From: a virus
Taxonomy: Duplodnaviria; Heunggongvirae; Uroviricota; Caudoviricetes
Length of the DNA: 42,705 nt
Virus record (IMG/VR): IMGVR_UViG_2778261632_000005
Location: 1-42,705 of that record
Reading direction: 5' to 3' (one strand)
Shown: one piece after another, positions 1,417-42,705 of the stretch
How the letters are laid out: the number at the start of each line of letters is the position of its first letter
How positions within the stretch are numbered: the first letter of the stretch is position 1
The notes under the pieces: model-generated
The model's input: only the letters and a program-made list of their open reading frames with translations
Told to the model about the DNA's origin: nothing
Database searches by the model: none
Made by a program: the position numbers and the translations under genes

Positions 1417-1701
1417 TTAGCTTTGGTGGAACAGCATAGAGCGGCCCGGGTGAGACATCAAAACAGCGCCAGCGTATATCACAGGTTCTTTCTTCACCTT
1501 CTTTGTGCCAGTCAACGACATCTGCCACTGGCTCGGCGTTCCTACCTGCCAACACTCATCTACTACCTTCAACATATCCGCGAGAATGTAAGCTCTGTTC
1601 CCGCCGTTTGAGTACTGGGTATCATGCTGCAGGTGTTCGCGTATCTGGTGCAGTCGATCGAGTGATGCAGGACCGTGCGCCGGGTGGTTGTTAGTTGTCA
1701 T
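1417..1701 (-). CDS. Hypothetical protein (94 aa)
   Basis: ATG overlaps the TGA stop of the upstream methyltransferase gene (ATGA coupling). Confidence 0.5.
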   Translation of the reverse strand: MTTNNHPAHGPASLDRLHQIREHLQHDTQYSNGGNRAYILADMLKVVDECWQVGTPSQWQMSLTGTKKVKKEPVIYAGAVLMSHPGRSMLFHQS

Positions 1702-2477
1702 GCTGCACGCTCCTGATTATTTATTTCTACGCAGCACGCTGAATGCTGCAGCTGCCACTCGCGGAACTTGTCCATTTCCAAGGGCTTTAATTCTGTCCAC
1801 CCGATGGGCCACCCCATTAGCCACTCGACCCATTCCGGGTTCAGTGGGCCAGTTACCGTATCCAGCTGCGGTGCAAATGACGGGATTCTGGATGGCGTAT
1901 TTACCTGCTGCGCTAAGCTGGTTCCCGTCATCTTCTCTGTGTACAGCCTCCCCGGTTCGCGTCGCTCGCTGATGGCGTTGTCCACATCCTGTGCGACGAC
2001 CCAAATTCTGTCTCGCTTGTGAGGCGCTCCAGCGTCGAGTGCTGAAATACGACACCATTGCGCGTCATACCCCATTTCGGCAAGGTCACCAACGACCACT
2101 GCAAGTCCTCTTCTAACAAGCAACGGTGAGTTTTCCACGAGCACGAAGCGCGGTCGAACCTCACTGATAATTCTTGCCATGTGCCGCCATAGTCCAGATT
2201 TCTCGCCATCAATTCCCGCTCCCTTTCCAGCGGCGCTAATGTCCTGGCATGGAAACCCTCCAGAAACGACATCAACAATTCCTCTCCATGGCTTTCCGTC
2301 AAAACTGCGCACGTCAGACCAAATCGGGAAAGGTCTGAGGATTCCATCGTTTTGTCGTTGCGCGAGAACTTGTGCGGCGTAGGCATCACGTTCAACTGCG
2401 CAAACTGTGCGCCATCCAAGGAGGTACCCTCCGAGAATTCCTCCGCCAGCGCCTGCGAAAAGAGCCAACTCATTCAC
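1698..2477 (-). CDS. DNA (cytosine-5)-methyltransferase, short orphan type
   Basis: Motif I FAGAGG, motif IV GGFPCQDIS (PCQ catalytic Cys), motif VI VLVENSP, motif VIII HKRDRIWVV; no adjacent restriction endonuclease gene. Confidence 0.85.
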   Translation of the reverse strand: MNELALFAGAGGGILGGYLLGWRTVCAVERDAYAAQVLAQRQNDGILRPFPIWSDVRSFDGKPWRGIVDVVSGGFPCQDISAAGKGAGIDGEKSGLWRHMARIISEVRPRFVLVENSPLLVRRGLAVVVGDLAEMGYDAQWCRISALDAGAPHKRDRIWVVAQDVDNAISERREPGRLYTEKMTGTSLAQQVNTPSRIPSFAPQLDTVTGPLNPEWVEWLMGWPIGWTELKPLEMDKFREWQLQHSACCVEINNQERAA

Positions 2478-5628: not shown

Positions 5629-5705
5629 TGGTGCAGCATGCAGGATTCGAACCTGCGACCCACGGCTTAGAAGGCCGCTGCTCTATCCATCTGAGCTAAT
5701 GCCAC
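5629..5705 (-). tRNA. tRNA-Arg (anticodon UCU), prophage-borne
   Basis: 77-nt cloverleaf read on the minus strand: D-arm GCTC/GAGC, anticodon loop CUUCUAA, T-arm GCAGG-UUCGAAU-CCUGC, 3' ACCA; the acceptor stem has two adjacent G-U pairs. Confidence 0.8.
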
Positions 5706-6798: not shown

Positions 6799-7458
6799 TT
6801 AGATGTTCTGCGTTATCTGAACAACTTTGCCTACAATGCGGCAATTGCCATCAATGGGGATCGGCTTAAAGGCGGGATTAAGCGGCATGAGATATGAGTA
6901 AGGGCTATCCCAAACAAGTTTCTTCACAGTCGCTTCTGCTGAACCATCAAGTATTGCAACGACAATTTTCCCATACAGGTCATCAAGTTGTCCGTAATGT
7001 GGCTCAACAATAACGATTGAGCCCTCCGGAATTGATGGAAGTCCATGTGGGTTAGTCATTGACTCACCACGAACTACCAATCCGAAAACTTCATCAGAAA
7101 CGTTTGCTGTGGTTTGAGTCCATGAAATCACATCAGTAAGCCTTGAACATGCATAGGTATCAGTCCATACCCCGGCCTGAACAGCAGAGATAATAGGAAC
7201 GGCGGTAGGTGGCTTCAGGTATGGGATAACTTTGGTGTCATCTTGAGTCTCATCACCCTTGCCGTAAAGAATCCATTCAGGAGTGGTCTGTAAAGCCATC
7301 GCTAGTTGGTGAAGGTTTTCTCCGTCAGGCTTAGTTGTACCGTTCTCCCATTTGGTAACGGACACTCTACTCACCCCAAGGCGTTTAGCCAGGGTCTGCT
7401 GAGTTATATCGAGCTGGACTCGCCGGGATCTTATTCGGTCTTTCATCTCTGTTTTCAT
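6799..7458 (-). CDS. cI: Prophage repressor, cI-like (HTH plus LexA-type S24 autopeptidase)
   Basis: N-terminal HTH (QQTLAKRLGVSRVSVTKWENG), Ala-Gly cleavage site (VQAGVW), Ser nucleophile GESM and Lys (TVKKL). Confidence 0.9.
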   Translation of the reverse strand: MKTEMKDRIRSRRVQLDITQQTLAKRLGVSRVSVTKWENGTTKPDGENLHQLAMALQTTPEWILYGKGDETQDDTKVIPYLKPPTAVPIISAVQAGVWTDTYACSRLTDVISWTQTTANVSDEVFGLVVRGESMTNPHGLPSIPEGSIVIVEPHYGQLDDLYGKIVVAILDGSAEATVKKLVWDSPYSYLMPLNPAFKPIPIDGNCRIVGKVVQITQNI

Positions 7459-7550
7459 GTAACCAATGTTACATTGATTCCTTGTAACTGTTGTTTGCTA
7501 TTTAATGTACCTTTTGTTACCTTTAAGGCGTGAGTTAACCAGGAGGAACC
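7459..7550. promoter_or_regulatory. Divergent repressor/cro promoter-operator region (OR-like)
   Basis: Third operator-like repeat TTTAATGTACCTTTTGTTACC at 7501-7521 plus GTTAC/GTAAC half-site-like motifs at 7465-7490; AGGAGG RBS before cro. Confidence 0.55.
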
Positions 7551-7748
7551 ATGTTTAAAACTGACGTCATAGAACACTTCGGAGGGGTATCAAAAACCGC
7601 GAGTGTTTTGGGAATTTCCCATCCTGCAGTGTGCAGATGGGGTGATGTGATCCCTCAGAAGCAAGCTTTTGTTATCGAACGTATCACTAAGGGCAAGCTT
7701 AAATACGATGCCAGCCTTTACCAAAAGTCTACAGACACAGCAGCTTAA
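7551..7748 (+). CDS. cro: Cro-like small HTH regulator
   Basis: 65 aa, divergent from the repressor; HTH (SKTASVLGISHPAVCRW); AGGAGG RBS. Confidence 0.7.
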   Translation: MFKTDVIEHFGGVSKTASVLGISHPAVCRWGDVIPQKQAFVIERITKGKLKYDASLYQKSTDTAA

Positions 7749-7773
7749 ACATAACTACCAAAGGAAAAACAAG

Positions 7774-8238
7774 ATGGTAGAGCAAACCCTGAAGGAAGTA
7801 GTGAAAGCGATGTGCAAGGCGTACCCCGGAGGCCGTCAGGCTATGGCTGGTGCGTTGGGCATGTCAGAAACCCAGTTCAACAACAACCTTTACGAGAAAA
7901 ACGGTTGTCGTTTCTTTGAAGTCACCGAGTTGGAAGCGATGGAAGACATTTCCAACACGTCATTGGTTGCTGACTACTTTGCCAAGCGTCGCGGCGCACT
8001 GCTGGTGGACGTACCAAACCTGGAAGATCTGGACCGTGTTGACTTGTTCAGCCGTGCAATGCGCACAGCAGCTGCAAGAGGGCAGGTTGATCAGATTATC
8101 CAGAAGGCGCTTGAGGATGGAGTTATTGAAAAGCATGAAGCCGAAGAGATTCAGGAACATCACCGCCGTCATCTGGCAGCGCGTGAAGAAGAAATCCGCG
8201 CGATTGTGGCCTTATTCAGCCGCCGTCAAAAGAAGTGA
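7774..8238 (+). CDS. CII-like / YdaT-like regulator
   Basis: 154 aa immediately after cro; AAGGA RBS; the ORF is open from 7669 but the first ATG with an RBS is 7774. Confidence 0.55.
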   Translation: MVEQTLKEVVKAMCKAYPGGRQAMAGALGMSETQFNNNLYEKNGCRFFEVTELEAMEDISNTSLVADYFAKRRGALLVDVPNLEDLDRVDLFSRAMRTAAARGQVDQIIQKALEDGVIEKHEAEEIQEHHRRHLAAREEEIRAIVALFSRRQKK

Positions 8239-8299
8239 CGCCAGCGAGTGTGCAGCTCCAGGCGTCGTGGCGTGTCGTATTCAGTGGAGAAACTAACGC

Positions 8300-8638
8300 A
8301 TGAACAGTGTAACAACACAGTACCGCAGGTCGCAACTTATTGCTCGACCTATGCCGGGTGGAAAAGGCCCGGCGCAGTTCGTGTATGGGGTAATGGTATC
8401 CGGATGCTTTGAGCCTGTCTGCTACCAGTTTGCCGATTGGGTTGTAGGTGATTTCAACGGCCAGGCGGAGAAGGTCGAATGCGAGCACTCAACAGACGGT
8501 TCAAAGACAGCTACGGCGTCCCAGTCAGGGTTATCCGGTGGGAGCCAGAAACTCAACGGGTTATATACCTGCGCGACGGATACGAGCATGAGTGCTTCAG
8601 TCCTCTCGAACAGTTTCAGCGTAAATTCAGGGAAATAG
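8300..8638 (+). CDS. Hypothetical protein (start supported; C-terminal extent doubtful)
   Basis: GGAGA RBS before the ATG at 8300; the C-terminal third is Ser/Thr-rich, looks like off-frame translation, and overlaps the next ORF. Confidence 0.35.
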   Translation: MNSVTTQYRRSQLIARPMPGGKGPAQFVYGVMVSGCFEPVCYQFADWVVGDFNGQAEKVECEHSTDGSKTATASQSGLSGGSQKLNGLYTCATDTSMSASVLSNSFSVNSGK

Positions 8639-8691
8639 AGGATCAGAATGAGCCTGTTAATGACATCCCGGCCCATAGTAATAAATCCTGA
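8479..8691 (+). CDS. Hypothetical small protein (70 aa)
   Basis: GGAGAAGG RBS; protein-like composition; overlaps the start of the replication gene. Confidence 0.4.
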   Translation: MRALNRRFKDSYGVPVRVIRWEPETQRVIYLRDGYEHECFSPLEQFQRKFREIEDQNEPVNDIPAHSNKS

Positions 8692-9568
8692 CCTTGCATA
8701 CAGCATTGGCCTGAATGAGGCGATTGCTTTGCAGCAGATTAATTACTGGCTGCAAGAAACCAAATCGGGCATGGAAAGTGATGGTGTTCGCTGGATTTAC
8801 AACACGACAGAACAGTGGCTGGAGCAGTTCCCGTTCTGGTCTGAGTCGACCCTGAAGCGTACCTTCACCCGCCTGAAGACACTCGGTGTGCTCAAAATTG
8901 AGCAACTGAACAAGTCCCAACGCGACATGACCAACTTCTACACAATCAACTATGAAAGCGAGCTTTTAGATGAAGTCAAAGTGACCGAATCGAAGAGGTC
9001 AAAATGTGCTCTTCCATCAGGTCAAAATGACACGATGGAAGAGGTCAAAGTGACACGCTCCATCAGGTCAAAACGAACCGATGTCATCAGGTCAAAATGC
9101 ACTGATGATCTTACAGAGAATACAACAGAGAGTACTACAGAGATTACAGGTAAAGACTCTTGTCCGGTTGCGGTGCAACCAGACCGAGATGTGTTGATTA
9201 CTGATCAGGCTAAACAGGTTTTGGTTCACCTTAACCAGGTCACGAACTCACGCTACCAGGTTTCAACCACGTCTCTGCAAAACATCCGTGCACGTATCGG
9301 CGAAGGGTTCACCGTTGCAGAGTTGTCGCTGGTGGTGGATTACTGCAACGCGAAGTGGGGTGATGACCTGAAGATGTCTGATTACCTGAGACCACAGACG
9401 CTTTTCCAGCCGTCCAAGTTCCCGGGATACCTCAAGTCTGCAAATAACTGGGACAAAGCTGGCCGCCCAGAACGAGTGAATGGCGAGTGGGCCCGCGAAG
9501 ATGGCATCTTCAAACCCAGCTTCAAGAACACTGATTACAGCGCTATTCCACCAGGGTTCAGGGGGTAA
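8648..9568 (+). CDS. Replication initiator, lambda O-like
   Basis: 306 aa in the replication position after cII; contains an internal iteron array; GAGGA RBS. Confidence 0.7.
   Translation: MSLLMTSRPIVINPDLAYSIGLNEAIALQQINYWLQETKSGMESDGVRWIYNTTEQWLEQFPFWSESTLKRTFTRLKTLGVLKIEQLNKSQRDMTNFYTINYESELLDEVKVTESKRSKCALPSGQNDTMEEVKVTRSIRSKRTDVIRSKCTDDLTENTTESTTEITGKDSCPVAVQPDRDVLITDQAKQVLVHLNQVTNSRYQVSTTSLQNIRARIGEGFTVAELSLVVDYCNAKWGDDLKMSDYLRPQTLFQPSKFPGYLKSANNWDKAGRPERVNGEWAREDGIFKPSFKNTDYSAIPPGFRG
8971..9099 (+). repeat. Origin-like iteron array inside the replication initiator gene
   Basis: Six direct repeats with core GTCAAA(A/G)(T/C)G at 8975, 8998, 9021, 9044, 9067 and 9091 (23-bp period, last 24), with alternating GAAGAG/CATCAG flanks. 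Confidence 0.75.
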
Positions 9569-9570
9569 CG

Positions 9571-10014
9571 ATGAGCATTCTGAAAATGGTCCAGATGTTT
9601 ATTGCCATGAACCCCGGCTCAACGACCAGGGACATCATCGAAGGTCTGACCCAGTTCAGCCAGGACAGGCTACAACTCGCCGTTTGCCGCCTGCATGGTT
9701 CTGGGCTGGCCACGCGTAAACGCGACGGTCGCCAATTCCGTTACTACGCGGAACCGCCAGCAGATTGCCACTTCGAAGTGTTTGAACCAACTCCTGAAGT
9801 CAGCGCCTTGATGGAAACGGCGAAAGGTCTGGAGTCGAAAGATCTCTTTCACCGTGCCGCGACGATTTACATGGAGGCGTTCAGCGCATCAGCCATTGAA
9901 TCAGAGCGAGCAGCAATACTGGCAGAACGTCAGCGCTGCCTTGGCCTGGCTAAACCAGCAGTTATTGCCGAAGACGGATGCTATCTGGCTGGTCGATTTT
10001 CGGGAGGCCGTTAA
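9571..10014 (+). CDS. Hypothetical protein in the lambda-P position (147 aa)
   Basis: Follows the O-like gene; no Walker motifs, so not a DnaC-type loader. Confidence 0.5.
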   Translation: MSILKMVQMFIAMNPGSTTRDIIEGLTQFSQDRLQLAVCRLHGSGLATRKRDGRQFRYYAEPPADCHFEVFEPTPEVSALMETAKGLESKDLFHRAATIYMEAFSASAIESERAAILAERQRCLGLAKPAVIAEDGCYLAGRFSGGR

Positions 10015-10682
10015 TGAACTATTCACTGATTTACGCCGATCCACCGTGGGAATACGGGAACACTATCAGCAATGGCGCAGCGGAAAACCATTACGGCACG
10101 ATGAAACTCATCGACATTAAACGCCTTCCTGTCTGGGAACTGGCCGCCGAAGATTCAGTTCTGGCTATGTGGTTCACCGGTACACATACCCGTGAGGCGA
10201 TCGAACTGGCTGAAGCATGGGGTTTTAAGGTTCGGACCATGAAGGGATTCACCTGGGTGAAGTTCAACTCACTGGCAGAACAGCATATCAATAAAGCGCT
10301 TCAGGCTGGTGGAGTAGAGGACTTTTACGACTTCCTTGACCTGTTGAACGCTCAGACCCGAATGAACGGTGGTAACTATACCCGCGCCAACACCGAGGAT
10401 CTGTTAATCGCCACCCGTGGTAAAGGGCTGGAACGGTTAAACGCGAGCGTGAAGCAGGTTATCTACAGCCCACTTGGTGAGCATAGCCAGAAGCCAGCAG
10501 AAGCGCGTTACCGTCTGGAGCAGTTATATGGCGATGTGTCACGCATTGAGTTGTTCAGCCGCTGCGCGTCCCCCGGCTGGCATCACTGGGGAAATCAGGC
10601 AGAAAACCCTGATGTAATCATGTTCCCTGGTTACGTTGCTAAACCTGCTCCGCTGCTGGAGGTGGCTTATGCAGGATGTTGA
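10014..10682 (+). CDS. DNA N6-adenine methyltransferase, MT-A70 / phage Dam-like
   Basis: DPPW catalytic motif (LIYADPPWEYG) near the N-terminus; GGAGG RBS; ATG overlaps the upstream stop (TAATG). Confidence 0.8.
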   Translation: MNYSLIYADPPWEYGNTISNGAAENHYGTMKLIDIKRLPVWELAAEDSVLAMWFTGTHTREAIELAEAWGFKVRTMKGFTWVKFNSLAEQHINKALQAGGVEDFYDFLDLLNAQTRMNGGNYTRANTEDLLIATRGKGLERLNASVKQVIYSPLGEHSQKPAEARYRLEQLYGDVSRIELFSRCASPGWHHWGNQAENPDVIMFPGYVAKPAPLLEVAYAGC

Positions 10683-10887
10683 GGCACGAAACGCGCTTCG
10701 TAACATCGCCAGAAGATGCAACGAGGAAATAACCGCTAAACGCAAGGCTAACCCAGGTATTAATTGTGACGAAATAGCCAGGCCAATTTTTAACGATGCC
10801 ATGGGGATGGTTAAGCAGCTCGGCTTTACGCCATCTCATTTGTATCTCGAAGTCGGGATTCTGAACAAGCGGATTAAGGAGCGCTGA
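10669..10887 (+). CDS. Hypothetical protein (72 aa)
   Basis: GGAGG RBS; start overlaps the methyltransferase 3' end. Confidence 0.45.
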   Translation: MQDVEARNALRNIARRCNEEITAKRKANPGINCDEIARPIFNDAMGMVKQLGFTPSHLYLEVGILNKRIKER

Positions 10888-10888
10888 A

Positions 10889-11206
10889 GTGAACAAACTT
10901 ACCGTGAGACAAAGTGAAGTACTTGGTTCGATCGTTAACTATCAGCGCCGGTTCGGATTCCCTCCAACGATATGTGAACTGGCTGGGCTGATTGGTTGCT
11001 CATCACCGAACGCAGCAGCGGAGCATGTGAAGGCCATAGCGAAGAAGGGATATATCTCAGTAGCACCTGGAGTTTCCAGGGGGATCACCGTTATTTCAGG
11101 AAATGATGAGGCAGACGCGATATCGATCATCAAGTCACTCATTAACGGTGAGAGTGATTCAAGAGAACGCGCCTTGTCATGGCTGGAAGCGAGGGGTGTT
11201 CAGTAA
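10889..11206 (+). CDS. LexA N-terminal DNA-binding-domain-only protein
   Basis: 105 aa, GTG start with AAGGAG RBS; resembles the LexA winged-helix domain (FPPTICELAGLIG-SSPNAAAEHVKAIAKKGYI); no S24 peptidase domain. Confidence 0.7.
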   Translation: MNKLTVRQSEVLGSIVNYQRRFGFPPTICELAGLIGCSSPNAAAEHVKAIAKKGYISVAPGVSRGITVISGNDEADAISIIKSLINGESDSRERALSWLEARGVQ

Positions 11207-11595
11207 TGAAATTAACGCTGCCATTCCCGCCAACAGTTAACACCTATTACCGGTCACCTGACCGTGGAGCGTTAAAGGGTAAGCACCTGATCAGTGAGAT
11301 GGGTAGGAAATTCAAGAAGAACGTTTACGCATCTGTTGTTGAGCAGTACGGCGGTATACCTAAACCAGTTAACGTCAACGTTGAGGTAAACATAGTTCTT
11401 TTCCCGCCAGATAACAGACGGCGGGATTTGGACAACTACAACAAAGCGCTGTTCGACGCACTGACGAATGCCAGAGTCTGGGAAGACGACAGTCAGGTTA
11501 AACGGATGGCAATCGAATGGGGGCCTGTAGTAAAGCCTGGAAGGGTAGAGATAACGATCAGCCGATTTGAAACCGTGGCGGGTGCAGCCGCCTGA
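11206..11595 (+). CDS. rusA: Holliday-junction resolvase RusA
   Basis: 129 aa; RusA-like motifs (LPFPPTVNTYYR, RRRDLDNYNKALFDALT); TAATG overlap with the upstream gene. Confidence 0.85.
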   Translation: MKLTLPFPPTVNTYYRSPDRGALKGKHLISEMGRKFKKNVYASVVEQYGGIPKPVNVNVEVNIVLFPPDNRRRDLDNYNKALFDALTNARVWEDDSQVKRMAIEWGPVVKPGRVEITISRFETVAGAAA

Positions 11596-11611
11596 TAAGT
11601 GGAGACAGAGC

Positions 11612-12337
11612 ATGCAACAGATGAGCATAACAGTAACGTGTCCGACCCATCATGCAGCAACGATAGGGCAGCAGATCACCATGTCCAGCCGTGAAATTGC
11701 GAAACTGGTTGATTCCCGGCACAGCAATGTCTGCGTAACGATAGAGCGCCTCATGAATTCCGGTGTGATTGGAGGGTATGCTGCATTGCAGTACACCCAT
11801 CCCCAGAACGGGCAGACCTACCATCACTATGAAGTGAACAAACGAGACAGCTATGTGATCGTTGCTCAATTATCGCCGGAGTTTACCGCCCGACTTGTTG
11901 ACCGCTGGCAGGAACTGGAGAGCAACGGTGGAATGATTGTTCCCCGGTCACTTCCTGAGGCACTGCGCCTTGCTGCTGATCTGGCAGAACAGAAACAGCG
12001 CCTGAGTGAAGAACTGGCAGTTGCAGCACCGAAGGCCGAGTTCGTTGATCGTTATGTTACGGCTACTGGGTCAATGACTTTCCGGCAGGTTGCCAAGCTG
12101 CTTAACGCCAAAGAGCCAGAGTTTGCGATGTTCCTGATTGAGAACGGCATCATGTACCGGCTTAACCGTGTTCTCACACCAAAGAGCAAGCATATCGAAG
12201 CAGGGCGCTTTGAGGTGAAGACGGGCACGACAAACCAGACAAATTATGCGTTCAATCAGTCCCGCTTCACCGCCAAGGGTGTTCGCTGGATTGGTGGCCT
12301 GTGGGCAGAGCATATTGCTAAGGGGCAGGTAGCGTGA
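11612..12337 (+). CDS. Rha-family phage regulatory protein / antirepressor-like
   Basis: 241 aa; Rha-like N-terminus (MSSREIAKLVDSRHSNV) with an antirepressor-type C-terminus; GGAGA RBS. Confidence 0.65.
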   Translation: MQQMSITVTCPTHHAATIGQQITMSSREIAKLVDSRHSNVCVTIERLMNSGVIGGYAALQYTHPQNGQTYHHYEVNKRDSYVIVAQLSPEFTARLVDRWQELESNGGMIVPRSLPEALRLAADLAEQKQRLSEELAVAAPKAEFVDRYVTATGSMTFRQVAKLLNAKEPEFAMFLIENGIMYRLNRVLTPKSKHIEAGRFEVKTGTTNQTNYAFNQSRFTAKGVRWIGGLWAEHIAKGQVA

Positions 12338-13323
12338 GGGCATTACTGACACCTGAAGTGGCACCGATGACCGGGGTAGTGATATTTCGCCCAGGCAGTG
12401 AACTGATGCATCTGTTCAGACGTGGGCGTGTTCTTATCGAGCCGCAGGCAGAGTCAATGACTGAGTTACCGTCTGGCATGCTGCCGGAGACTGCTCAGGA
12501 GCTTCAGAACGATCCGTTAATGCGTGCTGTCTTCGAAAATCAGAAGGTCATACATCGTGCTGGTGGACTGAATTCACTGGATTCCTGGCTCGAAAGAAAA
12601 CTGGAATGTCAGTACCCACACAGCGAGTGGCATGATCGCAACTACACCATCACCCGGCATGCGCCTAGCTCAATCCGCACGTGCTGGGGCTGTGACTTAA
12701 AAATTCGTGAGCAGTTCACTGAAGGTCTGGCGGGTATTGCCCGTCAAAACCTGGTATCCTGGCTTCTGAAGGTCGTAAACGGTCAATTAGGCTTCAGTGA
12801 AGACCATGTTCTTACGCTTCCGGAGTTTTGCTGGTGGATGGTAAAGAGCGACCTGGCTGACGAGATACCTGAAGCCGTAGCCCATAAAGCCCTTCGTCTG
12901 AAGGAGGAGACTAACCAGTCGGTAACACGTGAAAGCGATATTGTTCCGACATTACCCGCTCAACAACTGGTACAGGAGAAAGCGAAAAAGATAGTGGCGA
13001 TGAAGGTAGACCCGGAGACACCGGAATCCTTCATGCTTAAACCCAAGCGTCGCCGCTGGGTGAATGAGAAATACACGAGATGGGTTAAGGCCCAGCCGTG
13101 CGTATGCTGTAACAAGCAAGCTGACGACCCCCACCACCTGATTGGCCACGGGCAGGGTGGAATGGGTACAAAGGCACACGACCTGTTTGTGATTCCTCTG
13201 TGCAGAGAGCATCACGACGAGTTGCATGCTGATCCTGTGGTATTTGAATCGAAATACGGTGACCAGCTGGTCCTGGTGTTTCGGGTTATAGATCGTGCGC
13301 TGGCAATCGGCGTACTGGCGTAA
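12334..13323 (+). CDS. DUF968-like phage protein with C-terminal HNH-like Cys/His cluster
   Basis: 329 aa; C-terminal CVCCNK...HHLIGHG...CREHHDELH; GTG start overlapping the upstream stop. Confidence 0.55.
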   Translation: MRALLTPEVAPMTGVVIFRPGSELMHLFRRGRVLIEPQAESMTELPSGMLPETAQELQNDPLMRAVFENQKVIHRAGGLNSLDSWLERKLECQYPHSEWHDRNYTITRHAPSSIRTCWGCDLKIREQFTEGLAGIARQNLVSWLLKVVNGQLGFSEDHVLTLPEFCWWMVKSDLADEIPEAVAHKALRLKEETNQSVTRESDIVPTLPAQQLVQEKAKKIVAMKVDPETPESFMLKPKRRRWVNEKYTRWVKAQPCVCCNKQADDPHHLIGHGQGGMGTKAHDLFVIPLCREHHDELHADPVVFESKYGDQLVLVFRVIDRALAIGVLA

Positions 13324-13335
13324 GTGGAGACGCTC

Positions 13336-14166
13336 ATGGATCTCGATAATGTTGTTAAATTTTTTGCCCCAAAAGGAATGCATATTTCCGATAGTGTTCG
13401 CGCTACTGCTAGTGAACAACTAACAGTAACTGATGTTATGGCAGCTCTTGGCATGACCCAGGCAGACGCTGGAATTGGCCTTGCCATGTATCTTGGTAAG
13501 GCTGGGGTAAGTAAGCAGGACAGAGAAGCATCAATAAACTGGCTTGCTGAATACGCCAAAGAATCCGCGCCTTTTGCAGTTCGCCGCCTAGCCGGTAAAA
13601 AATTCCCTCTATGTATGCTCATCTTGGCTAAGTTCGCCTATAACGACTATGCATCATCAGCTGCTGATGTATTCGATTGTCCTAAATGCAATGGCAAAGG
13701 GCTAATTGAAAAAGTTGTAACGGTAACTAAAAGCCATTACACAATGAGGCTTCCGCAATGGGCCAAAGACTTCGGGCAGTCACCATCTTATTTCGAAAAG
13801 AAGCGTGAGGTTAAGGATATTGAGCAATCACTCTGCACTAAATGTCACGGAACCGGAAAGCTAAGCAAGCGCTGCCAGTGTGGTGGGACAGGAAAGACGC
13901 TGGACCGAAAAGCAACAGATCTTCAGGGCGTACCGGTTTATAAGGAATGCAAACGCTGTGAAGGTCGCGGTTACAGCAGACCAAAATCCTCCGTTGCTTA
14001 CCGGGGTATCTTTTCCGAACTTCCAAGCCTTCCAGATCGTACTTGGCGCTATAGCTGGAAACCATTCTATGAAATGCTCGTTTCTCGTTGTTTCCAGGAA
14101 GAGAGCTATTCAAATACACAATTGAAAAAAGTTACCAGAAACGAAAGTTTGAGCGATATCGCGTAA
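13336..14166 (+). CDS. Q: Late antiterminator, Q-like
   Basis: Sits just before a promoter-terminator region and the lysis genes; Cys-rich zinc-finger-like motifs (CPKCNGKG, CTKCHGTGK, CQCGGTGK, CKRCEGRG). Confidence 0.65.
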   Translation: MDLDNVVKFFAPKGMHISDSVRATASEQLTVTDVMAALGMTQADAGIGLAMYLGKAGVSKQDREASINWLAEYAKESAPFAVRRLAGKKFPLCMLILAKFAYNDYASSAADVFDCPKCNGKGLIEKVVTVTKSHYTMRLPQWAKDFGQSPSYFEKKREVKDIEQSLCTKCHGTGKLSKRCQCGGTGKTLDRKATDLQGVPVYKECKRCEGRGYSRPKSSVAYRGIFSELPSLPDRTWRYSWKPFYEMLVSRCFQEESYSNTQLKKVTRNESLSDIA

Positions 14167-36417: not shown

Positions 36418-38514
36418 ATGACCACTTATAACACCGGCAATCCGCTGGGGTCTGCTGCTGCAAAAGATTTATACGATAACGCTCAGAACTTTGATCATCT
36501 GTCGAATGATCTTGAAAATGAGATGTGGCCTGACCGATTTGGGAAGAGCAGGTTAACTTGGCATGGAATGGAAAAAAGATACCAGGAAAAGCTGGTGTCT
36601 ATGGGGTGGGAACTGATTGATTCATTTCAGGGAGGAACTACGTTAACGAGGGCAGATCAGGCGTTGCGTTGGGAATTACCTGATGGGGATGGAGAGTATT
36701 ACCGCTGGGATGGCTCTCTGCCTAAAACAGTCCCTGCCGGTTCTACACCAGATTCAACAGGTGGTGTTGGCACTGGCGCATGGGTTGGAGTTGGTGATGC
36801 ATCTCTTAGATCTGATCTAACAAAATATGGTGCAACGGTTGACCAGATAGCGCATCGGGTTACAACACTGAAATCTTTTGAAGAGTTTGGTGCGATTGGA
36901 GATGGGGTTACTAATGATACAGCCTCGATGCTGGCAGCGCTGGAATGGCTGAAAGATGTCCCTTTCGGTAAATTGGTTGGCAGACCTGGCGCAAATTATC
37001 TAATCACACAAAGCCTCGTCATGAAATTTGACGGCTCATACACTCAAGATGTAACGTCAACTCGCTATCTGGATTTTACTGGGACAGTGATTGTGGCAGG
37101 CGCCGATAATATCACTTGCATTCGCATGAGCCATGATTTCTGCCATATCATCAATCCTGTAGTAATTAACCCAAATAACTATTCCGACGTTATCGCCTAC
37201 GCTATTGCACCAGAAACCGAATCTCAGACTACCATACGCGTGTCACAGCAATTCTGTGTAATGGAGAATCCACGAGCACGGGGAACTAAGATAGGCCTTA
37301 AGTTTAAACCAGGGCCTACAGTCGGTGGGAGTAATAGCGGTGCGTATTACCACTCAATTATGAATCCTAATTTTGAGAGAGTGGATTGCGGATTCTATTT
37401 CGAGCGCAGCGTAAGCGGAGACAATAACAACACAAGGATTCATATCTTCAATCCAGTTCATATAACCGGTAACTGTGCTTTTTGGATCGAAAGCACTGAC
37501 TCACTACGCGTTTACGGTGGATCATGTGAAAATATCACATTGGGAACCTGGCCGGCTGACGTGCCATGCGCAGTCCGTGTTGTAAAAACAGTAAGCACAG
37601 ATACACAGGTCGCTGGAAACCTACATTTCTACGGATATCTTGGAGAAGTTTGTCACAGAGCCTATCAAATAGATACAAATGTAGGAACCTACGAAAACTA
37701 CTTTGATTGGAAATGGGTATTAATTAATGAAAACCCATATCGCGCACCAGGACAGGATGGGAATTTCGTAGCACGATTTGATGGGGAAATTCTTAGTAGT
37801 AGCTGGGACAACAGTGCTCTTAACGTAGTAGGGTGTAGAAACCCACATACAGGACATCAGGCAATAATCATCCAAAATCCAGATGAGACGCCAGCAGAAC
37901 TTTGGAGTAATACTGGGTGGAAATTTACCGCAACAATTTACGATTGCCCGGCACAAAATTTACAACATAGTAATAGCCATGAACAGATATTAGGGGCATT
38001 GTATGCTGGATTGACGCTTACAACCTATCCTGATAGCAGGAGAATAATGTTAACAAGCAAGGAGGGGGCTGATGGGGTTGAGAGACCACAAAATGATCTG
38101 ATAATTAATGGATTTAACAGGCTATGTGCAGAAAATGATAATGATACCGCTCTTGGTGATTCTGATAGACGGTGGAGTGTTGTTTATGCAGCTACTAGTT
38201 CAATAGTTACATCTGATGAGGAGCATAAAACCTCTTTTCTATCAGATGATAATACTTTAGAAAGAGAGAAGAAGGCAGCTAAGGAAATTAAAAGCTGTAT
38301 ATTTCGGTATAAGTTTAAAAAAAGCATTGATAAAAAAGGAGAGGGGGCCCGTCTTCATTATGGAGTGGGGGCGCAAACTGTTGGCGAAATTATGAGGAAG
38401 TATGACCTGAATCCGGATAATTATGCTTTTTGGTGCAGAAACAAAACAAATGAAGGCGATAGGTATGGTATCAGATACGAAGAGTTAATTATGTTTCTGA
38501 TGGTTAACGCATAA
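36418..38514 (+). CDS. Tailspike / side tail fibre with C-terminal intramolecular chaperone-like domain
   Basis: 698 aa; central region looks like a beta-helix depolymerase domain; C-terminal 110 aa resembles peptidase-S74 autoproteolytic chaperone domains (TSSIVTSDEEHKT ... GARLHYGVGAQTVGEIM ... YGIRYEELIMF). Confidence 0.6.
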   Translation: MTTYNTGNPLGSAAAKDLYDNAQNFDHLSNDLENEMWPDRFGKSRLTWHGMEKRYQEKLVSMGWELIDSFQGGTTLTRADQALRWELPDGDGEYYRWDGSLPKTVPAGSTPDSTGGVGTGAWVGVGDASLRSDLTKYGATVDQIAHRVTTLKSFEEFGAIGDGVTNDTASMLAALEWLKDVPFGKLVGRPGANYLITQSLVMKFDGSYTQDVTSTRYLDFTGTVIVAGADNITCIRMSHDFCHIINPVVINPNNYSDVIAYAIAPETESQTTIRVSQQFCVMENPRARGTKIGLKFKPGPTVGGSNSGAYYHSIMNPNFERVDCGFYFERSVSGDNNNTRIHIFNPVHITGNCAFWIESTDSLRVYGGSCENITLGTWPADVPCAVRVVKTVSTDTQVAGNLHFYGYLGEVCHRAYQIDTNVGTYENYFDWKWVLINENPYRAPGQDGNFVARFDGEILSSSWDNSALNVVGCRNPHTGHQAIIIQNPDETPAELWSNTGWKFTATIYDCPAQNLQHSNSHEQILGALYAGLTLTTYPDSRRIMLTSKEGADGVERPQNDLIINGFNRLCAENDNDTALGDSDRRWSVVYAATSSIVTSDEEHKTSFLSDDNTLEREKKAAKEIKSCIFRYKFKKSIDKKGEGARLHYGVGAQTVGEIMRKYDLNPDNYAFWCRNKTNEGDRYGIRYEELIMFLMVNA

Positions 38515-38558: not shown

Positions 38559-39995
38559 TTAGAATCTAATAACTACAATATTATCAACGAGATATATTGC
38601 AAATACATTACCTGCATATAAGGTGGTTTTGTCATTTGCTTTTAGTAAAATTTCATCACGTTTATCATTATTTGCATAGGTAATATCATTTAGCCCGTTC
38701 CTCATTAAAATAAATCTTCCACCATCATAACCCCAAGAAAATGTGTCAAGCATCATGTTATTCATGAATGGATAAATGTTAATGGTTGACTCCATGACTC
38801 CAGAATGTTGTGGGCGCCCATCAATAATAAATTCTTTATGCTTTGATAAATTCAACCTGTCAAGATTACTCACTATCCTGGTTGCTAAAGATTCTGCATA
38901 TCTAAAATCTTCTCGCACTGCATTTGTAGATGCACATAAAAAAAGATAATTAGTAAAGTAAAAAAATACCGCTGGCGCAAGCCATAGCCATTTACGTTTA
39001 AAAGAACAGCACAACGCATAAAGACAGAAGAAGGATGCAGCAGAAATCCCTATAATTGTTCGTGGTATGATTGATGGATTTTGCCCATACACTCCAACTC
39101 CTGGTATAAACGTGACAAGTGCACATAAAACAATAACTATCGTCAGAAAGGTAAATAATGGTTTTGTTGATCTAAAGCACATAACGCATACAGCAACAAC
39201 AAACGCAGCGCACATGATTGCAATCGGGTATAAAAATGGTGAGTCTAGTAGTTTTAAAATGAGTATGTATGAGTTTTTGTAATTATTAAGAACTGTTTCA
39301 AGTCCCGAATAAGTCAATGGAACGATTTTATTGAAATTCAAAAAGTAATAACTTACATTAGTTATTGGGATAATAACTTTAAGGTATGCTATAGTGCCTA
39401 AAAGAAATGTTAAAGCTCTAATTATCAATACTTTGGTTATGTTTTTATAATTTTCTTTTTTTACATAAGCTCCCATGAATATCTCAATAGCGGATAGACA
39501 TATAAATAGTGCTATTGCAGCTTGGTAAAGAGAAAGGCTGGCAACAAGAGCCGTTACTGACAAAACAAAAGAAGATATTTTGTTAGTGTGTAAAATATAA
39601 GGCGTAATTGCCATGGTTACAGATAGAACCATAAAGAAGGAATCATATCTGAATAATAAATTAGAAACAAAAAAAGGAGATGCTAAGAAGCATAAAGATA
39701 GCACTATTGCTTTAATCCCTTTGCTCCCTATAAAGTATTCACATACTTTTAAAGATACTGCACTATAAAGGATTAATGCCAGAATTGTCATTCCTGGGAA
39801 GTAGTCAGGAAGAACATCTCCTGTAGTAATTGTTCTATATATAGCTTCTGCAAGAGGTCGTCCATCTCCTTGCCATCCATAATATGACCATACCGACCTA
39901 AATATGTCGTCATTATAATAACTAGTTCCTAACAGTAATGGAATGGCATAAAATAATGTCAGTCCAGCAGCAATAACTATATGTCTATTAGGCAT
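38559..39995 (-). CDS. Serotype-specific O-antigen glucosyltransferase, GtrC-like polytopic membrane protein
   Basis: 478 aa, about 10 predicted TM helices, strongly AT-rich coding sequence, immediately downstream of gtrA-gtrB. Confidence 0.75.
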   Translation of the reverse strand: MPNRHIVIAAGLTLFYAIPLLLGTSYYNDDIFRSVWSYYGWQGDGRPLAEAIYRTITTGDVLPDYFPGMTILALILYSAVSLKVCEYFIGSKGIKAIVLSLCFLASPFFVSNLLFRYDSFFMVLSVTMAITPYILHTNKISSFVLSVTALVASLSLYQAAIALFICLSAIEIFMGAYVKKENYKNITKVLIIRALTFLLGTIAYLKVIIPITNVSYYFLNFNKIVPLTYSGLETVLNNYKNSYILILKLLDSPFLYPIAIMCAAFVVAVCVMCFRSTKPLFTFLTIVIVLCALVTFIPGVGVYGQNPSIIPRTIIGISAASFFCLYALCCSFKRKWLWLAPAVFFYFTNYLFLCASTNAVREDFRYAESLATRIVSNLDRLNLSKHKEFIIDGRPQHSGVMESTINIYPFMNNMMLDTFSWGYDGGRFILMRNGLNDITYANNDKRDEILLKANDKTTLYAGNVFAIYLVDNIVVIRF

Positions 39996-39999
39996 GATA

Positions 40000-40920
40000 T
40001 TACCTCTTATTCTTCTTTATAAGATATTTTGGCCTTTTTTTGGTTTCTAAATATATTCTACCAATATACTCACCAAGTACTCCAATTCCTATTAATTGAA
40101 TTCCACCAAGAAACAGAATAGACACTAGCAGGGATGGATAGCCCCGTACGGCGTTACCAAACGCTAAAGTGTTGAATATCATCCAGGCGCCATACAAAAA
40201 AGCGCAACCGGCTACCACTAGCCCAATATACGTCCAGATGCGAAGCGGGAAGGTCGAGAAAGAAGTTATGCCTTCTAGTGCTAAATTCCATAGTTTCCAG
40301 CCATTAAATTTTGAGTCTCCGGCAACACGTTCAGCTCTTGCATACTCAACAACATCAATTTTCCCACCAACCCATGACAAAACACCTTTCATGAAGAGAT
40401 TGCGCTCAGGAAGCAGTTTGATGTTTTCAACAACTTCGCGTGACATCAGGCGAAAATCACCCACGTTCTCTTCAATTTTTGGGTTGCTAATTTTGTTGTG
40501 TAGCTTGTAGAACCACTCAGCAGATTTGCGCTTTAGCCTTCCATCGGTAGAGCGGTCTGTTCTTTTAGCCAGAACCATATCAGCGCCATCCTGCCACTTA
40601 GCAATGAGGTGCGGGATGACATCGATAGGGTCTTGCAGATCAACATCGATTGGGATGACTGCTTCGCCGGTAGCATTATCGAGACCTGCGAATAGGGCAG
40701 GCTCTTTACCAAAGTTTCTGGTGAAAGATAGAGGTACCACCAATTTGTCAGAGACAGCAAGTGCATTGATGATGGATTCTGTTGAATCGCTGCTCCCGTC
40801 GTTAATAAATACAATCTCAATGTCGTACTCTTTTAGGCCTTCAAACTCGCGTACCGTTTTATAAAATATAGGTATTGTGGCCTCTTCGTTAAAGACCGGA
40901 ACAACTAAAGAAATTTTCAT
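40000..40920 (-). CDS. gtrB: Bactoprenol glucosyltransferase GtrB (GT2)
   Basis: 306 aa; GT2 motifs ([24 protein letters not shown]) and two C-terminal TM helices. Confidence 0.85.
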
Positions 40921-41279
40921 TTCGCATCCCTAAAGACAATGAATTTCGAGTAAATAAATCCGCATACCAAGCTGATCGCGGAAAAAGCAACCAGGGTGAC
41001 AATAGGTGGGAGTGCGCACAAATCAGCCCCCCAGCCAACAGCAGCGCTTAATGATCCCATAAAACCGACATATAACATGTAGCGCAGCATTGTTGTCGAT
41101 GAATTGAATGTGAATTTGGCATTGGCATAAAAACTGAACGATACAGCTACGGCAAATCCAGCCAGGTTCGCTAGAGCCTGATTTGTGTGCAATACGTAGA
41201 TGCAGATTGCAAACACAACCCAGTGGATAAGCGTATTGATGATGCCGATAGATGTGTACTTAGCGAATAGCTTTAACAT
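40917..41279 (-). CDS. gtrA: GtrA flippase-like small membrane protein
   Basis: 120 aa from MLKLFAKYT, 4 predicted TM helices; stop overlaps the gtrB start; ORF open to 41342. Confidence 0.8.
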
Positions 41280-41495
41280 TATAAAAATCAGTGAATTCTT
41301 AGAGGCCGAAAGTTTAGCATTTGAAAGTGGATCGATCGACATATCATGTTAATTTGGTGAGACAAAAACGGGATACACAAAGCTTTGCATCGGTTTGCAA
41401 GGCTTTGCAGTGCCCACCTATGACACATTCTCATGAAGAGCTCAGCAGTAATTATTGATAGGCAGCGCCGCATTGATCTGCAATCATTTTAAAAC

Positions 41496-42528: not shown

Positions 42529-42705
42529 AGCATCTAACTACTGTTACGCCATATGGGTTGGACTGAAGCGGCTGACCTGATTGTTAAAGGTATGGAAGGC
42601 GCAATCAATGCGAAGACCGTAACCTATGACTTCGAACGTCTGATGGAAGGCGCTAAACTGCTGAAATGTTCAGAGTTTGGTGACGCGATCATCAAGAATA
42701 TGTAA
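42529..42705 (+). pseudogene. icd: 3' fragment of the isocitrate dehydrogenase gene (icd), prophage junction remnant
   Basis: Encodes [55 protein letters not shown], recalled as near-identical to the E. coli Icd C-terminus; an in-frame TAA lies immediately upstream, so only the 3' end is present. Confidence 0.8.

Follow-up and report, generated by a model that had tools for sequence, protein, structure and literature searches.

Organization of the methyltransferase locus

The window, which is the whole stretch of 42,705 nucleotides analysed here, is a lambdoid prophage of the icd site. The segment of interest runs on the + strand from the replication initiator gene to a resolvase gene and comprises the following ORFs:

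8648..9568, + strand: replication initiation protein (O-like/DnaD-like, Phg_2220_C), start of the module (PF09524, E=1.9e-20; phrog_428, phrog_6493)
9571..10014, + strand: winged-helix/PerC-like (YfdN-type) gene, 147 aa (phrog_1324 "transcriptional activator", E=3.2e-51)
10014..10682, + strand: MT-A70 family N6-adenine methyltransferase gene, orphan, 222 aa (ORF, PF05063, phrog_359)
10669..10887, + strand: 72-aa ORF (phrog_303), overlapping the 3' end of the methyltransferase gene by 14 nt
10889..11206, + strand: LexA-DNA-binding-domain protein, flank marker of the slot (PF01726, E=5.4e-18; 45% identical to SfV orf42)
11206..11595, + strand: RusA Holliday-junction resolvase, flank marker of the slot (RefSeq; 62-67% identical to its counterparts in SfV, mEp460, F1055 and ST64B)

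The methyltransferase ORF is intact, with an ATG at 10014, a TGA at 10680-10682 and 222 codons. Its ATG shares bases with the stop codon of the PerC-like ORF (TAATG), and a GGGAGG Shine-Dalgarno sequence graded as strong lies six nucleotides 5' of it (10002-10007); the gene is predicted to be translationally coupled to the one upstream. A crude promoter scan returned no sigma-70-like promoter for the methyltransferase gene, which fits read-through from the early-right promoter, and the + strand holds no terminator-like site between 7440 and 13989. The identical gene is found in two complete E. coli genomes, where it is labelled "MT-A70 family methyltransferase", the name that RefSeq also gives to the identical protein WP_089621178.1 of E. 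coli PCP07014. Intact copies with 83-96% protein identity occur in Citrobacter, Enterobacter, Leclercia and other genera. Phage records gave no Megablast match to the 1.8-kb region, and relatives had to be sought at the protein level. With an identical RefSeq protein correctly named and a 67%-identical enzyme characterised, this is an ordinary and already known accessory gene of lambdoid phages.

The gene order in the window is replication gene, PerC-like gene, methyltransferase, LexA-like gene, RusA, KilAC and DUF968. The sequence-only reading had assigned the methyltransferase to the nin region, and this assignment holds: the gene has the replication initiator (8648-9568) on one side and RusA, DUF968 and Q on the other. 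The arrangement is syntenic with that of six SfV-type phages, the LexA-like proteins being 45%, the RusA proteins 62-67% and the DUF968 proteins 58% identical. In these SfV-type phages the same slot is occupied by a Dam protein of family PF05869, and in the Salmonella phage F1055 by a D12-class adenine methyltransferase (PF02086). The history of this slot is one of displacement of one adenine methyltransferase by another.

Homologues of the PerC-like protein (SfV, mEp460, F1055, ST64B and others) are each encoded directly upstream of an adenine methyltransferase, at seven loci; that of SfV, orf40, matches PerC itself (PF06069, E=1.1e-9). Among about 48 MT-A70 loci, the gene found 5' of the methyltransferase is NinG in seven, a PerC-like gene in six and the replication gene directly in three, with many others in the remainder. 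An obligate partnership of the PerC-like gene with the MT-A70 subfamily of the window was rejected on this count of six in about 48. The family of the downstream 72-aa ORF follows the MT-A70 gene in eight of these loci. It is also present in 195 phage records, including Lambda-named ones, indicating that it is widespread among lambdoid phages and probably not specific to methyltransferase loci. A relation of this ORF to the C-terminal extension of the 283-aa variants was rejected on comparison.

Family, motifs and predicted fold

Pfam analysis assigns the protein to the MT-A70 family (PF05063; 89.3 bits against a cut-off of 23.9, E=3.5e-25, in two stretches), and the PHROG match is phrog_359, "DNA methyltransferase" (E=3.5e-96). 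A word-indexed protein search reports 951 homologues, while an exhaustive search reports 11,847 representative clusters with E<=1e-3. These scores and numbers establish that the methyltransferase is not a chance ORF. No NCBIfam model matches it, and PF05063 is the sole Pfam family at E<=0.01, with no match to PF02086 (D12) or PF05869 (phage Dam). Three segments of the gene deserve mention:

10038..10049, + strand: codons of the motif IV DPPW, the catalytic adenine-binding motif (residues 9-12)
10266..10364, + strand: subfamily-specific insert, candidate target-recognition element (~22 residues, roughly 95-116)
10482..10562, + strand: C-terminal SAM-binding region of the circularly permuted fold (HSQKP, residues 157-161; ELFSR, residues 179-183)

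Residues D9, P10 and W12 of motif IV are invariant in both alignments made (A1 and A2). In an alignment with eight relatives of 40-76% identity, so are H157, S158, K160 and P161 of the HSxKP motif (nt 10482-10496) and E179, L180, F181 and R183 of the ELFxR motif (nt 10548-10562). The SAM-binding region aligns with the MTA1 chain 7f4r of the PDB. Since motif IV precedes the SAM-binding motifs, the protein has the circularly permuted, beta-class order. An adenine methyltransferase ORF with a DPPW near its N-terminus had been recognised from the letters, and the intact 222-codon frame with its MT-A70 and phrog_359 matches bears this out. The accompanying designation "MT-A70/Dam-like" is right as to the family; the protein is not a homologue of the classical Dam enzymes, and in view of the missing PF02086 and PF05869 matches the second half of the label can refer only to a specificity, GATC, that homology makes likely.

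The insert falls inside a two-helix element (residues 86-117, with helices at 86-97 and 104-117 in the AF2 model). It is common to p32 of the Serratia phage vB_SspM_BZS1, to phiES15 and to Klebsiella phage copies, and missing from the Vibrio and Blautia homologues and from gp5 of the Stx phage PA8; it may serve in target recognition. The AF2 model is of moderate confidence (pLDDT 67, pTM 0.67). Foldseek analysis of this model reports METTL3 and Tetrahymena MTA1 (probability 1.00, TM about 0.45-0.5), and phmmer against the PDB returns the same two proteins at about 1e-7; no PDB entries match better than these eukaryotic enzymes in sequence or structure. As far as the model goes, the fold search confirms a Rossmann-like MT-A70 fold, one that is shared by DNA-acting and RNA-acting enzymes and cannot tell them apart. 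METTL3-METTL14 (RNA m6A) and the Tetrahymena MTA1c complex (DNA 6mA), although sharing this fold and the catalytic DPPW, are only about 20% identical to the window protein and are obligate heteromers with extra domains, as compared with the bare catalytic domain in the phage.

Orphan status and the companion C5-cytosine methyltransferase

The methyltransferase is neighboured by the PerC-like gene, the 72-aa ORF, the LexA-like gene and RusA, without any adjacent restriction endonuclease as a partner. For the late region we relied on RefSeq, whose annotation of the near-identical prophage of E. coli PCP07014 contains no restriction enzyme; the only nucleases in it are RusA, a DUF968/HNH-like protein and a terminase-associated HNH protein. 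The "orphan" label that the gene had received therefore stands.

The prophage had also been credited with both a C5-cytosine and an N6-adenine methyltransferase. Both ORFs are present, the former being:

1698..2477, - strand: short C5-cytosine methyltransferase ORF, 259 codons (PF00145, E=8.6e-31, residues 4-182)

This ORF is open, but relative to its RefSeq twin and to the Lelliottia and Dryocola orthologues it carries a 1-nt deletion at ~1942, which puts its last ~80 codons in another frame. The reading frame of the last third is doubtful, Pfam does not decide which C-terminus is the correct one, and this copy of the gene may be non-functional. Such pairings recur in other genomes and, as an association with DNA modification, speak for a DNA target: C5-cytosine DNA methyltransferases adjoin the MT-A70 gene at six loci (L022, L023, L025, L040, L042 and L047), and an annotated "Dcm methylase" stands beside it at a further one (L004).

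Relation to characterised enzymes

The closest tested relative is p32 of phage BZS1 (MT843275), with 67% identity over 95% of the length. The two proteins are of nearly the same size (220 residues for p32, 222 in the window), have the same motifs and insert, and are orphans of temperate phages. Their genes are placed differently, that of p32 lying in the early-left arm, where xis and int are its neighbours and a small ANR-family regulator gene precedes it, instead of following a PerC-like gene in the nin region. Of the two, p32 is the one with an experimental test: produced by itself in dam- E. coli, it renders plasmid DNA resistant to MboI and sensitive to DpnI, while HinfI and Hin1II sites are still cleaved (PMC7556043).

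A second relative, M.EcoPA8orf6770P (PA8 gp5), is 44% identical (E=1e-58). It is said to be very similar to M.EcoGV of E. coli O104:H4, an enzyme with GATC as its listed target (PMC10810198). Proteins of this type share with the window protein the MT-A70 clade, the N-terminal DPPW and the status of orphan prophage genes, but belong to another subfamily, devoid of the ~22-aa insert; their genes are located in the left arm and co-transcribed with PNB-2, a partner lacking from the window, which redirects the activity to 16S rRNA in vitro. Replacement of DPPW by APPA in the PA8 enzyme abolished its in vivo effect, complementation of virulence (PMC10810198). Like M.EcoGV more distant than p32 is the Tn1549 enzyme of Enterococcus, M.EfaBMDam, which is cited in PMC7556043 as GATC-specific and as the first bacterial MT-A70 enzyme with this specificity. 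It belongs to the same bacterial MT-A70 subgroup, and window homologues of ~40% identity occur in Clostridia contigs (L053, L054); unlike the window gene, it is carried by a conjugative transposon of Firmicutes.

The enzymes that otherwise occupy the slot are of different descent. The Dam proteins of SfV (orf41), mEp460, ST64B, Stx2a_1447, Kati and phiSTEC1575-Stx2k share the identical position, orthologous flanks and a similar size (217 aa), but are of family PF05869, and the window protein has no tblastn match in those loci. The SfV-type Dam is analogous in position and function, and no homology to it is detectable here. E. coli Dam and the D12-class enzyme of F1055 (PF02086), the latter from the same slot, resemble the window enzyme in predicted GATC target and m6A product, but have the alpha-class motif order and belong to a different family. 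The phage MT-A70 and host Dam enzymes have been described as convergent in specificity (PMC7556043).

Probable substrate and function of the methyltransferase

The product is best described as an N6-adenine methyltransferase that consists of a single domain, depends on SAM and belongs to the bacterial/phage MT-A70 clade, which has the beta-class, circularly permuted motif order. By homology to p32, M.EcoGV and the Tn1549 enzyme, GATC specificity is likely; the enzyme would recognise this site in double-stranded DNA without a partner. Given the position in the early-right operon and the translational coupling, its synthesis is expected once the prophage is induced or a cell is infected, at the time of phage DNA replication. 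Its job would be to complete the GATC methylation of progeny DNA where host Dam falls behind, and full methylation would shield this DNA from methylation-sensitive restriction enzymes that cleave GATC in the next host. A rationale is offered by the virion DNA of Lambda and P22, which host Dam methylates incompletely (PMC8022706). An early-expressed GATC DNA methyltransferase protecting progeny DNA is the reading that we favour as reasonably probable. The benefit is conditional, as a Dam enzyme is present in the host anyway. The roles put forward in the sequence-only reading, self-protection, packaging and replication timing, are conjectural, and for packaging the sequence gives no indication.

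Several observations temper this assignment. Specificity can change at 67% identity, and the published GATC results were obtained by over-expression, which Gong et al. argue may give off-target activity (PMC10810198). GATC is under-represented in the prophage, with 126 sites observed against 207 in a Markov expectation (ratio 0.61). This depletion runs counter to full self-protection, but it is weak evidence because phage genomes are mosaic; the sites do not form telling clusters either, and the statistics are uninformative on specificity. The residual avoidance would nevertheless fit a DNA N6-adenine methyltransferase of another specificity, either for a different short motif or relaxed to the point of being nearly non-specific. 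Prophage adenine methyltransferases with relaxed specificity are known, namely M.EcoGII and p25 of phage OS31 in the Serratia study (PMC7556043), and in the insert, which possibly contacts DNA, many positions are not the same in p32 as in the window protein. M.EcoGII and OS31 p25 are, however, not shown to be MT-A70 relatives, p25 being described apart from the MT-A70 protein p32 (PMC7556043). The DNA specificity reported for p32, M.EcoGV and the Tn1549 enzyme is GATC in each case, and the slot is otherwise occupied by enzymes of Dam-named families; a departure from GATC is unlikely. Far less credible still is an inactive remnant that is carried along unused. It could be suspected from the disabling changes in the neighbouring C5 methyltransferase of the same prophage lineage, from the degraded MT-A70 copies of endosymbiont genomes (L045, L048, L050, L052) and from the related M.EcoGV, whose expression in the strain it comes from is described as no more than weak (PMC10810198). 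Against this, the ORF is full length with all invariant family residues in place, its start combines a strong Shine-Dalgarno sequence with translational coupling, and the 83-96% identical copies of other genera are intact.

The 16S rRNA work on the PA8 relative means that DNA is not the sole published substrate of the clade. The PA8 enzyme has only weak DNA activity in vitro, and its 1:1 complex with PNB-2 prefers 16S rRNA more than 13-fold (2023 paper, PMC10810198). By analogy with M.EcoPA8orf6770P-PNB-2, the window enzyme, 44% identical to the catalytic subunit of that holoenzyme, could be mainly a 16S rRNA methyltransferase that alters translation and so affects prophage induction, with the upstream protein as a possible targeting subunit. 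This 147-aa protein is a predicted winged-helix protein of about the size of PNB-2, and its gene overlaps the methyltransferase start as that of PNB-2 does in PA8. A PNB-2 homologue is encoded upstream at three loci of the window's own subfamily (L027, L018, L034), which counts against the GATC reading. In addition, METTL3, an RNA enzyme, is among the nearest solved structures, and one ORF (P0031) fuses PerC-like and MT-A70 parts. P0031 is a single 2.5-kb contig with DPAW in place of DPPW, which is why the fusion may be a sequencing frameshift. The window itself is devoid of a PNB-2 homologue (best tblastn E=0.064, not significant). Homology of the upstream protein to PNB-2 was rejected, as its family has no detectable relation to PNB-2: BLASTP returned nothing against PNB-2 (E=4.2) or PNB-1, and the profile-profile comparison by hhalign gave a probability of 0.6%. 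Classical DNA Dam enzymes of two further families likewise come after PerC-like genes, so the pairing of these genes with MT-A70 is not the mark of an RNA enzyme, and at other loci the methyltransferase follows the replication gene directly without a PerC-like gene (L009) or is separated from the PerC-like gene (L010). The much closer relative BZS1 p32 methylates GATC DNA unaided (PMC7556043). Finally, the window gene belongs to the lytic early-right operon, whereas that of PA8 belongs to a left-arm operon induced as cells near stationary phase, and the PA8 study did not establish which rRNA base is modified (PMC10810198). Taken as an account of the window enzyme, the rRNA reading is improbable, and methylation of GATC in DNA remains our preferred assignment.

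For the phage MT-A70 clade, two claims of function are in conflict: methylation of GATC in DNA, and methylation of 16S rRNA with PNB-2 as a requirement. The window copy is a natural test case for them: it stands without PNB-2, in a lytic operon and in a slot otherwise holding classical Dam-type enzymes, and its target would tell whether the enzymes of the clade act on DNA by default.

A closer look may be warranted, too, at the constant pairing between PerC-like genes and adenine methyltransferases from three families. One conceivable explanation is that the PerC-like (YfdN-type) gene and the adenine methyltransferase that follows form a two-gene regulator/writer epigenetic module of lambdoid phages, in which the regulator would be constant and the methyltransferase swapped among three unrelated families, MT-A70, PF05869 and PF02086. 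The winged-helix protein could then regulate the methyltransferase, direct it to its target or recognise the mark that it sets, and in the MT-A70 case it might take the role that PNB-2 has in Stx phages. We regard such a module as rather unlikely, and mention it for the recurrence of the gene pair.

The MT-A70 methyltransferase gene and its product

The gene under study and its catalytic motif occupy the following positions:

10014-10682, + strand: MT-A70 methyltransferase ORF of 222 codons, ATG at 10014 and TGA at 10680-10682
10038-10049, + strand: codons of the DPPW motif (motif IV, residues 9-12)

The ORF is exactly the one that the sequence-only reading had delimited and named MT-A70/Dam-like; the family name is right and "Dam-like" is reasonable as a description of specificity, but the protein is no homologue of Dam. 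A Shine-Dalgarno sequence (GGGAGG) stands 6 nt before the ATG. The ATG also shares bases with the stop codon of the ORF before it (TAATG), an arrangement that usually points to translational coupling. Pfam analysis reports a hit with MT-A70 (PF05063; 89.3 bits, E=3.5e-25, cut-off 23.9) and PHROG analysis one with phrog_359, "DNA methyltransferase" (E=3.5e-96), while no NCBIfam model matched the protein. The MT-A70 family is very large: a word-indexed protein search returned 951 homologues, the nearest from Citrobacter portucalensis (96% identity), and an exhaustive search returned 11,847 representative clusters with E<=1e-3. Since public genomes already carry the annotation and the clade is characterised, the novelty of the gene is low.

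Alignment with eight relatives (45-76% identity) leaves D9, P10 and W12 of motif IV invariant, together with H157, S158, K160, P161, E179, L180, F181 and R183. The catalytic motif precedes the SAM-binding region, an order that is that of the beta class. An AF2 model built from 37 homologues is of moderate confidence (pLDDT 67, pTM 0.67), and its best PDB matches by Foldseek are METTL3 and MTA1, the DNA 6mA methyltransferase of Tetrahymena (probability 1.00, TM about 0.45-0.5), in agreement with the PDB matches at the sequence level. The predicted fold confirms MT-A70 membership and does not discriminate between DNA and RNA substrates. In the model, a two-helix element (residues 86-117) holds a segment of ~22 residues that the protein has in common with its close relatives and that the alignment shows to be missing from Stx-phage, Vibrio and Clostridia homologues, making it a candidate target-recognition element. 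Other architectures occur within the family. Long forms of 283-311 residues (among proteins P0077, P0090, P0094 and P0101 and at loci L025, L040 and L042) carry a conserved C-terminal extension of ~65-90 residues, and at these three loci the long form is followed by a C5 methyltransferase of 665-685 residues. The 357-residue protein P0031, known from a single short contig, fuses a PerC-like domain to MT-A70, matches both Pfam families and has DPAW in place of DPPW.

The prophage and the expression of the gene

Among 5,426 genomes searched, two complete E. coli genomes contain the gene with 100% DNA identity, annotated as "MT-A70 family methyltransferase", and five others contain it with ~92% identity. 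Over its first 25.7 kb the window shows 99.9% identity with a lambdoid prophage beside icd in E. coli PCP07014, and the remainder matches the late region of that prophage minus a copy of ISEc8 (IS66 family). In PCP07014 (locus L058, 3292-5735) this element separates the tail-fibre gene from the gtr operon; it is missing from the window (~38353-38360), which therefore comes from another strain. The last 164 nt (42542-42705) are 92% identical to the icd 3' end and are the duplicated icd segment that marks attR; such a duplication is typical of phages integrating at icd.

On the + strand, genes for a cro-like protein, a YmfL-like protein, DUF4222, the replication initiator (8648-9568) and a 147-residue protein (9571-10014) precede the methyltransferase gene, and those for a 72-residue protein, a protein with a LexA DNA-binding domain, RusA, a KilAC antirepressor, DUF968 and Q follow it. 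The earlier label "nin region" is a fair one for a gene in this order, between the replication initiator and RusA, DUF968 and Q. From 7440 to 13989 the + strand has no terminator-like site, nor is the gene preceded by a promoter-like one, suggesting that it would be transcribed by read-through from the early-right promoter and be silent in the lysogen. The description of the enzyme as an orphan is borne out, since the annotation of the near-identical PCP07014 prophage contains no restriction endonuclease. Nothing in the sequence supports the packaging role that had also been proposed. No GATC cluster that would hint at a methylation-controlled site was found; the terminase consists of HK97-type small and large subunits with an HNH protein. 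The early-left region also encodes a tRNA-Arg (anticodon TCT; 5629-5705, - strand) between a hypothetical gene and sieB.

A slot shared by three methyltransferase families

The 147-residue upstream protein is a winged-helix, PerC-like protein of the YfdN type, and its homologue in phage SfV matches Pfam PerC (E=1.1e-9). By tblastn, homologues occur in 51 phage records, seven of which were read: SfV, mEp460, F1055, ST64B, Stx2a_1447, Kati and phiSTEC1575-Stx2k (loci L055-L057 and L059-L062). In all seven, which amount to two independent cases (plus the window) because six are close relatives, the PerC-like gene stands right after the replication gene and right before a gene for an adenine methyltransferase, whose start codon overlaps the stop codon of the PerC-like gene. 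Downstream lie RusA (7/7), a LexA-like gene (5/7) and, wherever the fetched sequence extended far enough, DUF968/HNH. These flanking genes have their orthologues in the window (LexA-like 45%, RusA 62-67% and DUF968 58% identity). The enzyme between them differs: it belongs to PF05869 "Dam" in the six SfV-type phages and to the D12 class (PF02086) in F1055, whereas the window has an MT-A70 enzyme. The slot has thus been filled by three unrelated adenine methyltransferase families, a case of non-orthologous displacement, which argues by analogy that the MT-A70 enzyme would do the job of phage Dam. The pairing of PerC-like genes with adenine methyltransferases of three families, in seven phage loci and the window, is of modest interest and may be functional beyond being positional.

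Relatives of the MT-A70 gene itself, surveyed at 47 genome loci (40-94% identity) and six phage loci, occupy diverse settings. At six loci, window included, the gene follows a PerC-like gene in the nin region; at three (e.g. L009) it stands directly after the replication gene without a PerC-like gene, and at seven after NinG and before Q. Its place in phiES15, Klebsiella phages and BZS1 is the early-left arm, close to exo/bet or xis/int. A cytosine methyltransferase gene comes next downstream at seven loci, with C5-methyltransferase sequence or motifs seen in six (L022, L023, L025, L040, L042 and L047) and a "Dcm methylase" annotation lacking a Pfam match in the seventh (L004). The MT-A70 gene behaves as a mobile accessory gene, self-sufficient and moving in the company of other DNA-modification genes, and this speaks against an obligate partner for the subfamily of the window. 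Copies also occur in insect- and plant-associated endosymbionts, namely Candidatus Phlomobacter fragariae (five loci) and Arsenophonus (L043-L045, L048, L050 and L052); frameshifts or truncations affect some of them, and one upstream ORF of 80 residues is common to the Phlomobacter copies.

The companion C5 methyltransferase

The sequence-only reading had also credited the prophage with a C5-cytosine methyltransferase, which holds true at the ORF level:

1698-2477, - strand: C5 methyltransferase ORF, 259 codons open, PF00145 match over residues 4-182 (E=8.6e-31)

The locus is of modest interest for its unexplained dual-frame structure, seen by comparison with locus L001 (6690-7480), Lelliottia locus L022 (4649-5392) and Dryocola locus L047 (about 7120-7870). 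The orthologues in L022 and L047 each have two overlapping open frames that span the full ~245 codons: frame 0 contains motifs I-VIII and ends in "...RVDRVKALGNGQVP", and frame +1 starts with "MSWLFSQ" and ends in "...LNPEWVEWFMGWPIGWT". Relative to L022, L047 and the RefSeq twin, the window is short of 1 nt at about 1942, which shifts the reading frame of its last ~80 codons, so that the ORF fuses a frame-0 N-terminus to a frame +1 C-terminus. The twin keeps the other frame, but two substitutions interrupt both with a stop. The pattern of substitutions favours the methyltransferase frame (frame 0) over the first 510 nt and lean weakly towards frame +1 over the last 125 nt.

Substrate of the MT-A70 enzyme

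Experiments on relatives have led to two functional claims within the clade, GATC methylation of DNA for p32 and M.EcoGV and 16S rRNA methylation for M.EcoPA8orf6770P. The p32 protein of Serratia phage vB_SspM_BZS1 is 67% identical to the window protein over 95% of its length and has the same ~22-residue insert. Expressed alone in dam- E. coli, it rendered a plasmid resistant to MboI and sensitive to DpnI while HinfI and Hin1II still cut, the digestion pattern from which GATC specificity was assigned (PMC7556043). The same study places in the family the phiES15 protein (79% identity to the window protein) and the HK639 protein (78%). For M.EcoGV, from E. coli O104:H4, PMC6602927 lists GATC as the target, and PMC10810198 summarises that its over-production leads to GATC methylation in vivo. 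The Stx phage PA8 enzyme M.EcoPA8orf6770P is highly similar to M.EcoGV and shares 44% identity with the window protein (E=1e-58); it had only weak DNA activity alone in vitro, and preferred 16S rRNA when in a 1:1 complex with PNB-2, the product of its upstream gene; the modified base was not identified in that study (PMC10810198).

The window enzyme would on this basis be a stand-alone N6-adenine methyltransferase, made early after induction, and its most likely role would be to methylate GATC in replicating phage DNA; judged from sequence, we consider GATC methylation the probable activity. Its rationale is that host Dam leaves Lambda and P22 virion DNA under-methylated (PMC8022706) and that the prophage carries a cytosine methyltransferase gene besides. 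This reading is weakened because the published GATC evidence comes from over-expression, because the PA8 study is a counter-example inside the clade and because GATC is under-represented in the prophage, with 126 sites in the whole window where a second-order Markov model predicts 207 (ratio 0.61), rarer relative to expectation than most other 4-bp palindromes (CTAG is lower, at 0.39). Another or relaxed DNA specificity is rather unlikely in our estimation, and an inactive gene very improbable.

That the enzyme might act mainly on RNA, as in the 16S rRNA holoenzyme of PA8, deserves weighing since the arrangement is superficially alike: in PA8 the PNB-2 gene (143 residues, predicted winged helix) overlaps the methyltransferase start, as does the 147-residue ORF here. 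No relationship between this ORF and PNB-2 could be detected, with a BLASTP E of 4.2, different PHROG families (phrog_1324, "transcriptional activator", against phrog_1680) and an hhalign probability of 0.6% between the two families, albeit from small alignments; no PNB-2 relative was found elsewhere in the whole window. PNB-2 homologues (about 50-52% identity) do lie upstream of MT-A70 genes in Raoultella L027 (3567-3992), Pseudenterobacter L018 (3415-3834) and Enterobacter L034 (2910-3329, with an internal stop), whose enzymes belong to the subfamily of the window (75-78% identity), so the association is not confined to Stx phages. With PNB-2 absent at the window locus and the subfamily's settings so varied, a mainly RNA-directed activity seems decidedly unlikely. 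A copy devoid of PNB-2 in the classical slot of phage Dam is of modest interest.

GATC methylation by a phage enzyme could also bear on a second locus:

38559-41342, - strand, upstream region to about 41500: operon for O-antigen glucosylation (gtrA-gtrB-gtr(type)), right end of the prophage

The gtrA ORF has at its 5' end a pair of overlapping GATC sites (CGATCGATC, at 41330 and 41334), which coincide with its true start or immediately precede it; a further site occurs at 41475 in the upstream region. Since the P22 gtr operon is phase-variable via Dam and OxyR (PMC8022706), a phage GATC methyltransferase could, by analogy, be relevant to this operon.
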